Shown here in pieces: positions 5,301-7,306 of a stretch of DNA of 64,000 nucleotides (positions are counted from its first letter, which is position 1; each line of letters begins with the position of its first letter). The notes beneath the pieces are model-generated. The model was not told the DNA's origin. It did not search any database and was given only the letters and a program-made list of their open reading frames with translations. The position numbers and the translations under genes were made by a program. Source of the stretch: Parachlamydiales bacterium (lineage in GTDB: Bacteria; Chlamydiota; Chlamydiia; Chlamydiales; JAJFMK01); assembly GCA_963765145.1 (NCBI GenBank), contig CAVXVG010000005.1, forward strand, positions 64,001 through 128,000, in the 5' to 3' direction.

Positions 5301-5361
5301 GGCACCCACGTTCGTGGGTGCATTTTTTTAATGTTTCACTTACCCAGGGTTGCGCGCTTCG
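5301..5361 (+). repeat. Left part of family D REP-like element (5' exon of intron)
   Basis: GGCACCCACGTTCGTGGGTGC hairpin, T-run, then left arm CCCAGGGT and loop GCTTCG. Confidence 0.75.
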
Positions 5362-7263
5362 GTGCGCCACGAGGCGCACATTATCTAGTCGATGAAAGTT
5401 CGACTAAAGAAGGGCTACCCAGCCCACTTTATACCGAGTCTTAAAACTAAGGAGGTAACGAGATGGTTTAAGCGTAGACAGGAAAATTGCAGGCCGTAAG
5501 GTGAAAACCGAGTGATTGAGCCCCGAAAACACCCTTATTGAGAGGTGCCGACGACGTCGAAGCGGTTGGAAGGCAACATCATCTAGATCGACAATGGGAA
5601 GAGATAGATGGACGTACTCCGGGGTCGAAGAGCATGGCATGTAATGAAAGATAATGTGTGAACGTGGGATCTCCTAGCACGCCTCTTCTACATAGAGAGA
5701 AGTATTGGCCGACAAGCTGAAAAAGTGAGGAAGCCGAAATAGCTGCTAGGAAGTCAGATGGAACGTAGTACCGATGAGGTGGAGTAACGACCACGGAGGG
5801 AAGGTTCCTCGGTAAATATTGCCTTAAGTAAAGGAGACGTCATGGGAACAATCGAAGCCCAGACACTGACGAGAACGAAACTGAACAAGATAGCCTTGCT
5901 ATCTAAAAGCGATCCGAAAAGAAGTTTTTCAAGTCTAATGCATCACTTCAATTACGAGTCGCTGAAAGAACGTTTCTACGAGCTCGATGGAAAGAAAGCC
6001 GTAGGAATAGATGGTGTAGATAAAGAGTCATACGCCGAGAACCTCGATCAAAATATCCTCAATCTCATCTCAAGGATGAAAACCATGTCTTATCGACCTG
6101 GACCCGTGAGAGAGGTGCTCATACCTAAGGAAGGGAAGCCAGGGGCTACCAGACCATTAGGGATAAGCAATCTGGAGGATAAGATCGTGCAGAAAATGAT
6201 GCAACAGATCCTAGAAAGCATCTACGAACCCATATTCCTGGAATGTTCCTTCGGGTTCAGGCCAGGAAAAGGTTGCCACGATGCAATAAGGGCGTTGCAA
6301 CACCACCTGTACGAGAACGAGGTCCAAACAATCATAGATATAGACCTAAAGAACTTCTTCGGAACGATCGATCACAAGATGCTGGAAGGCATTCTGAACG
6401 AGAAGATCAAGGACACAAAGTTTATGAGATACATAAACCGCATGTTCAAAGCCGGAGTACTATCAGAAGGAGATCTCAAAATGAGCGACGAAGGAGTGCC
6501 TCAGGGAAGCATATGCAGCCCTGTGCTGTCGAACGTCTTCGCTCATTATGCGATAGACTGCTGGATAGAGGAGATGGTCAAACCAAACTGTGAAGGTAGA
6601 GTTGAACTTTTTCGGTATGCAGATGACGCAGTGATATGCTGTCAGTCCGATAAGGATGCACAACGCATTAGAACAACCCTGGTGAAACGCTTAGAGAAAT
6701 ACAAGTTGAAGCTCAACGAGGAAAAGACAAAACTTGTCCCGTTTGATAAGAGACTTGTGGCCCAAGGGGTCAAGCAAGGGACCTTCGACTTTTTAGGATT
6801 TACCTTCTACTGGGGAAAGGCAACGTCAGGAAGGATCGTACCGAAACTGATGACGAAGGCCAAAACCATGAAGGCAAAACTTAAGAAAGTAACAGAATGG
6901 ATTAGGGAGGAGAGATGCAGAAAGCCACTGAAGGAGATATGGAAGACCTTTGCAGCGAAGCTAAGGGGCCACGTAAACTATTACGGAGTCTCACACAATG
7001 CAGAAAAGGTCTCCAAATTTATATATGAGGCAAGCCGCATCGTCTTCAAATGGTTGAATAGGCGTAGTCAACGCAAGAGCTTCACATGGGAGGGGTACGA
7101 GAAATACATAAAAACGCACCCTCTCCCCAAGGCGAGGATAGTGCACAAACTCTTTTAAACACCATAGTGTGGTGAATGGTATTTATCGAGAGCCCGTTGC
7201 CTTAATTGGGCACGGCGGGTTCTAACGGGGGGGAGAGCGGGTGACCGACTCTCCCTACCCTCT
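5362..7263 (+). mobile_element. Group II intron (AGC-triad, non-IIC; 3' end uncertain by 1-2 nt)
   Basis: 5' GTGCG at 5362; EBS1 CGAAGCG 5558-5564; domain V GAGCCCGTTGCCTTAATTGGGCACGGCGGGTTC from 7191; domain VI with bulged A7257; internal RT ORF. Confidence 0.9.
5842..7158 (+). CDS. ltrA: Group II intron reverse transcriptase/maturase (no endonuclease domain)
   Basis: RPLGI, SFGFRPG, GVPQGS, RYADD, FDFLGF, LRGHVNYY domain X; 438 aa, no HNH. Confidence 0.95.
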   Translation: MGTIEAQTLTRTKLNKIALLSKSDPKRSFSSLMHHFNYESLKERFYELDGKKAVGIDGVDKESYAENLDQNILNLISRMKTMSYRPGPVREVLIPKEGKPGATRPLGISNLEDKIVQKMMQQILESIYEPIFLECSFGFRPGKGCHDAIRALQHHLYENEVQTIIDIDLKNFFGTIDHKMLEGILNEKIKDTKFMRYINRMFKAGVLSEGDLKMSDEGVPQGSICSPVLSNVFAHYAIDCWIEEMVKPNCEGRVELFRYADDAVICCQSDKDAQRIRTTLVKRLEKYKLKLNEEKTKLVPFDKRLVAQGVKQGTFDFLGFTFYWGKATSGRIVPKLMTKAKTMKAKLKKVTEWIREERCRKPLKEIWKTFAAKLRGHVNYYGVSHNAEKVSKFIYEASRIVFKWLNRRSQRKSFTWEGYEKYIKTHPLPKARIVHKLF

Positions 7264-7306
7264 CAGCTTACCCTGGGCTACAATCCAAAAACGCCCTTCG
7301 GGCGTT
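7264..7306 (+). repeat. Right part of family D REP-like element (3' exon of intron)
   Basis: ACCCTGGG arm complementary to 5343-5350, then CTAC (GTAG on minus strand) and AAACGCCCTTCGGGCGTTT hairpin. Confidence 0.75.

Follow-up and report, generated by a model that had tools for sequence, protein, structure and literature searches.

A class E group II intron without an endonuclease, located in a multicopy GTAG REP-type palindrome and probably brought there by EBS/IBS pairing

Among the described systems, RmInt1 and RmInt2 of Sinorhizobium meliloti are class D introns that likewise lack an endonuclease (En) domain and home by EBS/IBS pairing into a multicopy selfish element (PMC4615759). According to the available text of that paper, RmInt2 uses the inverted repeats of IS elements, which places targets on both strands, and accepts EBS2 pairing that is imperfect and shifted. 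Both differ from the intron studied here in their class D RT and in that their targets are IS elements or the ends of these rather than short intergenic palindromes. The accessible part of a further study describes IS-targeting and low occupancy as common among introns (PMC3522654). Class C (IIC) introns, which are found at terminators and attC sites, share the hairpin-associated, non-coding location with the present intron, which has a terminator-like hairpin 40 nt upstream, but they are described, in the portions of the papers available, with an EBS1 of 3–4 bp and no EBS2, whereas the EBS1 of the present intron is 7 bp long, its EBS2 covaries and it shows features of class E (PMC4424553, PMC7923331). 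One of these papers speculates on hairpins ahead of IIB introns at attC sites (PMC7923331). Class E introns such as S.me I4 and Cl.be.I2 resemble the present intron in the absence of En, a 5-nt domain V (DV) loop, a terminal alpha' and the presence of both EBS1 and EBS2, as far as the available text describes them (PMC5894124, PMC3753933).

REPs serve as multicopy extragenic targets for IS1397, ISKpn1, IS621, ISPa11, and ISPpu9/10, as does the palindrome described here for an intron, but these elements use DNA transposases; the available text of the same source lists two out of nine group II intron copies of Pseudomonas putida KT2440 as REP-associated, in a table row that gives neither a class nor an EBS analysis (PMC1525189). 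GTAG REPs and REPINs consist of a GTAG tag followed by a palindrome and are multicopy, mostly extragenic and often arranged in inverted pairs, and the word “intron” does not occur in the main text of the study that describes them (PMC3733652). REP targeting is known for IS elements and intron homing into IS inverted repeats is known for RmInt2. Neither a REP-type target for a class E intron nor a IIB/class E intron that homes to REPs through its EBS was found in the literature searched, outside which most subscription journals lie.

The stretch of DNA analyzed here (the window, 64,000 nt) belongs to the assembly of a Parachlamydiales bacterium (G000; 2.68 Mb, 37 contigs, 84.8% complete). It contains a class E (IIB-like) group II intron of 1902 nt at 5362..7263 (+ strand, GTGCG...CT) between two convergent genes at 4859-5293 (+) and 7322-8272 (−). 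The group II hallmarks are all present: a GUGYG 5' end, domain I, a catalytic DV, a DVI with a bulged A and an RT/maturase ORF in DIV. The start at 5362 and all other coordinates quoted in a previous, sequence-only reading were verified, and the 3' end that it had placed at about 7263 was fixed at this position, because an exact intron-free copy of the site with different flanks (contig C12, minus strand, near position 110) requires it; an end at 7264 is ruled out by the same copy. The intron does not carry the 3'-terminal AY of group II introns but ends in CT; since the boundary is set by the exact empty site, the CT end represents a lineage trait, and most relatives share it. The Rfam D1-D4-6 model matches 5395-5634 (131 bits), and a by-eye reading of its alignment suggests a putative alpha at 5418..5421 (+) with alpha' at 5595-5598 in a terminal stem-loop. 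The full-length DV with AGC that had been claimed was recovered by folding (7189..7223, +; 35 nt, AGC triad at 7191-7193, CG bulge, 5-nt loop); DVI follows at 7227..7260 (+) with the bulged A at 7257, and the two domains fold cleanly (z = −6.2). Searches with blastn and tblastn identified one intron copy and one RT in G000 and neither further copies nor other RTs in this 84.8%-complete assembly. Neither an exon-joined form nor a contig spanning the whole stretch was present among the sequencing-run contigs examined. Judged by its sequence, the intron is a complete and intact class E retroelement for which splicing and retrohoming are predicted.

The intron-encoded RT/maturase (5842..7158, +; 438 aa, YADD intact) matches TIGR04416 with 331 bits (cut-off 300), and a domain search identified RVT_1 (residues 94-322) and GIIM (344-417) and nothing else, which bears out the earlier claim of an endonuclease-less intron. 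In a phylogenetic tree of 23 RTs, the window RT and ten relatives cluster with S.me I4 (support 100/98), the one literature-labelled class E reference in the tree, which is represented by a partial frame. S.me I4 is named class E in the available text of PMC5894124 and was identified here as a frameshifted RT on pRmeGR4b. The reference RTs for class D (n = 2), g1 (n = 2), g2 (n = 1) and g3/F (n = 1), taken from the supplements of PMC3552965, are separate from the class E clade, which excludes these classes for the window RT; the tree was built without g4, Ge.ur.I1-type F, A, B, C, CL, and ML. The class D RmInt1 RT is 28% identical to the window RT and falls into a separate clade. Class C was excluded through RNA features and not through the tree. 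IIC introns have a short DV with a CGC triad, and the 35-nt DV with AGC, the 7-bp EBS1 and the covarying EBS2 of the present intron rule out membership; together with the RT placement this upholds the proposal of a non-IIC intron. A 5-nt DV loop and an alpha' that ends a stem-loop in DId3 are given as traits of classes E and F in the accessible text of PMC3753933, and the window intron has both (alpha' by eye). A sequence search of the PDB returned matches from other classes only. The nearest plasmid-borne relatives (59–62% RT identity) were found in Piscirickettsia salmonis, some of them interrupted by IS630.

Removal of the intron restores a palindrome, as had been claimed, and the restored sequence exists as the exact empty copy on C12. 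The 5' exon (5343..5361, +) comprises the left palindrome arm (5343-5350) and half of the tip, with IBS2 at 5346-5350 and IBS1 at 5355-5361. The 3' exon (7264..7286, +) comprises the rest of the tip, the right arm (7270-7277) and CTAC, the GTAG tag of the minus strand (7278-7281). The palindrome is part of a composite repeat with an upstream module, the terminator-like hairpin with a T-run (5302..5321, +) that recurs upstream of many other copies, and a downstream hairpin module (7289..7307, +). The right arm with the GTAG tag occurs 53 times in G000 with at most two mismatches (family A, 0.12% of the assembly), and 42 of these 53 anchors are located outside ORFs according to a crude ORF mask; a search with three mismatches gave 55 matches, two of them spurious. 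The units are often arranged as inverted pairs. A GTAG tag beside an 8-bp arm, multiple copies, a mostly extragenic location and inverted pairs are the characteristics of GTAG REPs, and the identification of the target as a GTAG REP was therefore retained; family A differs from the elements in the available text of PMC3733652 in that no cognate RAYT was found for it in the 85%-complete assembly. Classified by their loops, 22 copies form a long-insert subfamily, 29 a short-loop subfamily that includes the occupied site, and 2 were not parsed. A single copy out of 53 carries the intron. Of the suggested “safe homing reservoir”, the multicopy and mostly intergenic repeat family is supported, but its use was overstated with 1/53 occupied and one intron copy. 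The intron-free paralog that had been pointed out at 1689..1787 (−) belongs to family A but is diverged, and the exact empty site is the one on C12.

Family A was not found in three related genomes (G001, G002, and G003; 94%, 88%, and 78% complete) and for this reason looks lineage-specific, as far as sequence comparison goes. The 5' part of the intron is absent from the matches in the same three genomes, and G001 carries only a 3' fragment. At the orthologous locus, G001 has both upstream genes, but the genome gives no clean empty allele because family A was not found in it and the downstream gene differs.

EBS1 (5558-5564) lies in the d3 stem-loop (5552..5568, +) and is the exact reverse complement of IBS1 (7 bp). 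The Rfam alignment places CGAAGCG in the d3 (EBS1) loop; a position of CGAAGC outside this loop, which would have contradicted the earlier reading, was not found. Guides and exons were compared across the intron family, where 103 loci yielded 52 with a parsed d3 loop and an exon and 42 distinct guide sets with at least 30 nt of exon; the d3 loop was parsed without using the exon sequence. Out of 6 possible pairs, EBS1 forms 5.19 with the cognate exon and 1.78 with the exons of others, and at least five pairs are formed in 34 out of 42 guide sets compared with 1.5% of the cross pairs. By this sequence comparison, the EBS1 at 5558-5564 is genuine. G5569 (+), opposite C7264, is the probable EBS3; the first base of the d3 loop was considered for this role and performed well in a few loci but failed over a wider set.

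EBS2 (5531..5535, +) complements 5346-5350, as had been noted, and covaries within the family, but its spacing at the occupied site lies 1–2 nt beyond the usual register. The longest EBS2 run averages 4.6 with the own exon and 3.6 in cross pairs, with 0 out of 2000 permutations as high (the relatives are not independent), and a 5-bp match at any spacing is found in 15% of mismatched intron/exon pairs. Runs of at least four at registers 5, 6, 7, and 8 occur in 5, 22, 4, and 1 of 41 sets, respectively, with a background of 2–3% each (2.9% at register 6). The occupied site uses register 8, which is seen in 1/41 relatives and is not above background, while the same EBS2 pairs with short family-A variants at register 6. 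Only four sites in G000 combine a 6-nt IBS1 with a perfect IBS2 at register 6, and three of them are empty short variants of family A. With registers 5–7 allowed, 5 of the 24 top-scoring G000 sites are located in family A, and 0/41 other guides fit the short variant. The guide is therefore matched to family A, with a closer fit to the short form than to the occupied copy, and the EBS2 spacing suggests a short-variant site as the source of this copy, which would have accepted a target 2 nt longer. The EBS1 target with the +1 C alone occurs at 201 sites in G000, 156 of them outside ORFs, and these are mostly ends of a second repeat family (family B) among the matches listed. Close relatives vary chiefly in the EBS2 and d3 segments. 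According to the available text of PMC3753933, a IIE intron and a IIF intron do not require the EBS2–IBS2 interaction when they splice in vitro.

A sister intron (loci L044 and L045) shares 93.3% nucleotide and 97% RT identity with the window intron and carries different guides, with the greatest divergence in the EBS2/d3 bin (12/50 nt). It is located at three different family-B ends (L044, L045, and a contig end in sequencing run X2). Family B has 164 matches (20-mer, one mismatch) or 219 matches (24-mer, four mismatches), counted in G000 and not in the sister's own host. The sister EBS1 pairs at only 4/6 positions at L044 and L045, and the best-scoring G000 sites of the sister guides are outside family B (0/22 at EBS1 6/6); both facts are left unexplained by a simple guide-match model. 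The two introns make up a natural pair for the study of retargeting: their RTs are nearly identical in sequence (97%), but both the guides and the repeat families differ. This guide-swapped pair and the EBS2 register that points to a short REP variant are the most useful new points of the analysis, and the pair bears on the role of EBS2 in DNA homing and on the effect, favorable or adverse, of target hairpins on IIB reverse splicing. Family-B units (e.g., C2:37396-37415) often form inverted pairs about 60 nt apart that end in a tiny variable hairpin, and they are nearly absent from G001-G003 (1, 0, and 0 matches). Run X2 also contains a 631-nt contig that joins window position 5814 to 7170, carries sister-type guides and has a depth of 10.4 compared with 4.7 for ORF contigs; it is an apparent ORF-less derivative of the sister intron.

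The insertion sites of 16 homologs were classified by matching the 5' exon end against the own genome, the figures being match counts and not copy numbers. L004, L007, L008, L011, L148, L149, and L151 were left out, the motifs used for L001, G102, G166, and L132 were picked once repeats had been noticed, and several repeat-positive loci were selected due to their repeat-like look. Short multicopy repeats are occupied by six homologs (L001, 11; L002, 35; L012, 34; L131, 16; G102, 13; G166, 139), other multicopy DNA, possibly IS, by three (L003, 4; L132, 6; L140, 10) and unique DNA by seven (L009, L010, L133, L138, L139, L142, and L144). The expectation of the sequence-only reading that homologs avoid non-REP targets accordingly holds in part: the nearest relatives (the sister, L012 and L131) are all located in repeat families, but 7/16 homologs lie in unique DNA, and the lineage does not target REPs exclusively. 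G102 and G166 each contain two occupied copies within one repeat family. High-copy 16-mers, computed as a null for G000 only, make up 2.6% of the assembly and 15.6% of its non-ORF DNA (20.7% with a 10-nt margin). Junctions that span ORFs, assessed on short flanks, number 0/7 in the closest clade, 4/15 in the surrounding clade and 3/21 outside. The flanks of the close relatives L047, L054, L055, L012, L001, and L063 contain short CTCTG-rich or ATCCTG-rich repeats that are not GTAG REPs. The target family of the G166 intron forms long arrays of inverted repeat pairs with a period of about 215 nt (BIME-like, G166:C1:769457-774563). The 3' flanks of L074, L077, and L081 show another intron 5' end directly after the intron 3' end, head-to-tail copies of the kind described for RmInt2 in the available text on that intron.

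The reading that we favor, with a probability of about 0.6, is ordinary EBS/IBS homing by an endonuclease-less class E intron whose guides are matched to a multicopy intergenic REP-type palindrome, in an intron family that has settled on REP-like repeats more than once. Homing would proceed by base pairing of EBS1 (7 bp), EBS2 (5 bp) and probably EBS3. By analogy with the class D introns RmInt1 and RmInt2, the RNP would reverse-splice into single-stranded DNA at the replication fork, the inserted intron would be copied from a nascent-strand primer and imperfect EBS2 pairing would be tolerated. The inverted pairs of family A make the target available on either strand. A retargeted variant that lands in a repeat family would find many harmless sites that fit its guides and may persist for that reason, and guides would be exchanged over time while the intron passes from one lineage-specific repeat family to another. 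The guide–exon covariation, the short family-A variants among the best sites, the sister at family-B ends, the own-genome repeat counts and the small share of high-copy repeats in G000 (2.6%) speak for this reading. Against it stand the single copy with 1/53 sites occupied in an 85%-complete assembly, the seven homologs in unique DNA and the three in other multicopy DNA, register 8 at the occupied site, the weak EBS1 pairing of the sister, whose best-scoring G000 sites miss family B, and the in vitro splicing of IIE and IIF introns without EBS2–IBS2.

Several of these observations would also be expected if retrotransposition had a relaxed specificity (mainly EBS1 and EBS3) and introns persisted only in repeat-rich intergenic DNA, with the REP as a passive bystander. 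Repeats account for 16–21% of the non-ORF DNA of G000, 156 of the 201 IBS1+C sites are outside ORFs, and the single copy, the 7/16 homologs in unique DNA and the off-register EBS2 at the occupied site agree with such a survivor effect. We nevertheless consider it unlikely, given that EBS2 is in register with the short family-A variants and none of the 41 other guides fit them, that the sister occupies three distinct ends within a single repeat family and that G102 and G166 each have two copies in one family. Recognition of a single-stranded DNA hairpin beside or around IBS1 by the RT or RNA whatever its sequence, similar to the structure-directed targeting of IIC introns, appears still less probable. 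It is suggested by the folding of 43 distinct junctions with both exons (clades from a quick tree), where z ≤ −2 was reached in 4/7 junctions of the closest clade and 4/15 of the surrounding clade compared with 1/21 outside and 12/114 flank controls, as well as by the sister, which pairs weakly yet inserts directly after small hairpins, and by the G102 and G166 copies 4 nt past a hairpin. However, the junction is found at the tip, in the stem or after the stem, many sites lack a hairpin, and a full-length EBS1 with a covarying EBS2 is unlike IIC. In the predicted fold of the empty site, the main stem contains IBS2, and folding would make IBS2 and part of IBS1 inaccessible; the insertion in the hairpin loop that had been proposed is within the palindrome tip, where a small inner stem contains the junction. 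On the favored reading, the hairpin need not be read for targeting.

A coupling to REP mobilization, in which a Y1/RAYT transposase acting on REPs uncovers single-stranded DNA, provides a primer or takes the intron with it, is highly improbable. G000 contains six Y1_Tnp matches, several with inverted-repeat flanks, and the L004 homolog interrupts a RAYT-like gene at its start (first 34 codons, L004:1927-2028; NF047646, E = 3e-4, below the cut-off), but family A flanks none of the six matches in the 84.8%-complete assembly and a second copy of the intron-plus-REP unit was not found in G000.

Compared with the sequence-only reading as a whole, class E, the missing endonuclease, the multicopy GTAG palindrome, the real EBS1 and the repeat-matched EBS2 remain, and the use as a reservoir and the REP specificity do not. 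The chemistry itself is standard. EBS-guided homing into family A would show a route by which an endonuclease-less IIB intron may persist in a gene-dense genome, with guides matched to an abundant non-coding repeat. As a tentative extension that we regard as somewhat doubtful, the introns may form a REP-specialized class E sub-lineage, in which fast EBS1/EBS2 switching (within 7% nucleotide divergence) tracks lineage-specific repeats spread by Y1 transposases and which supports ORF-less derivatives. Such a sub-lineage would constitute a layered parasite system of transposase, repeat, intron, and mini-intron, and it would place REP-type palindromes next to IS elements, terminators, and attC sites as a niche into which IIB introns home repeatedly.

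Y1/RAYT-like transposase genes were identified in the window at 55344-55580 (G000:C5:119344-119580) and elsewhere in G000 at C21:219036-219377, C24:56771-57109, and C28:46907-47080. Several of these genes are each flanked by their own repeat family, and such families recur in the window at about 11750-12310, 17320-17640, 21670-21870, 36690-36890, and 40200-40410. An Rfam Acido-Lenti-1 match at 17544-17588 (37.6 bits, threshold 37) overlaps a REP-like repeat and is probably a repeat rather than an sRNA. The gene at 1848-3737 (−) encodes a VWA-domain protein of 629 aa that contains low-complexity repeats. The gene downstream of the intron at 7322-8272 (−) codes for a coiled-coil protein of 316 aa that has a hydrophobic stretch at the N terminus and internal repeats of 114 nt.
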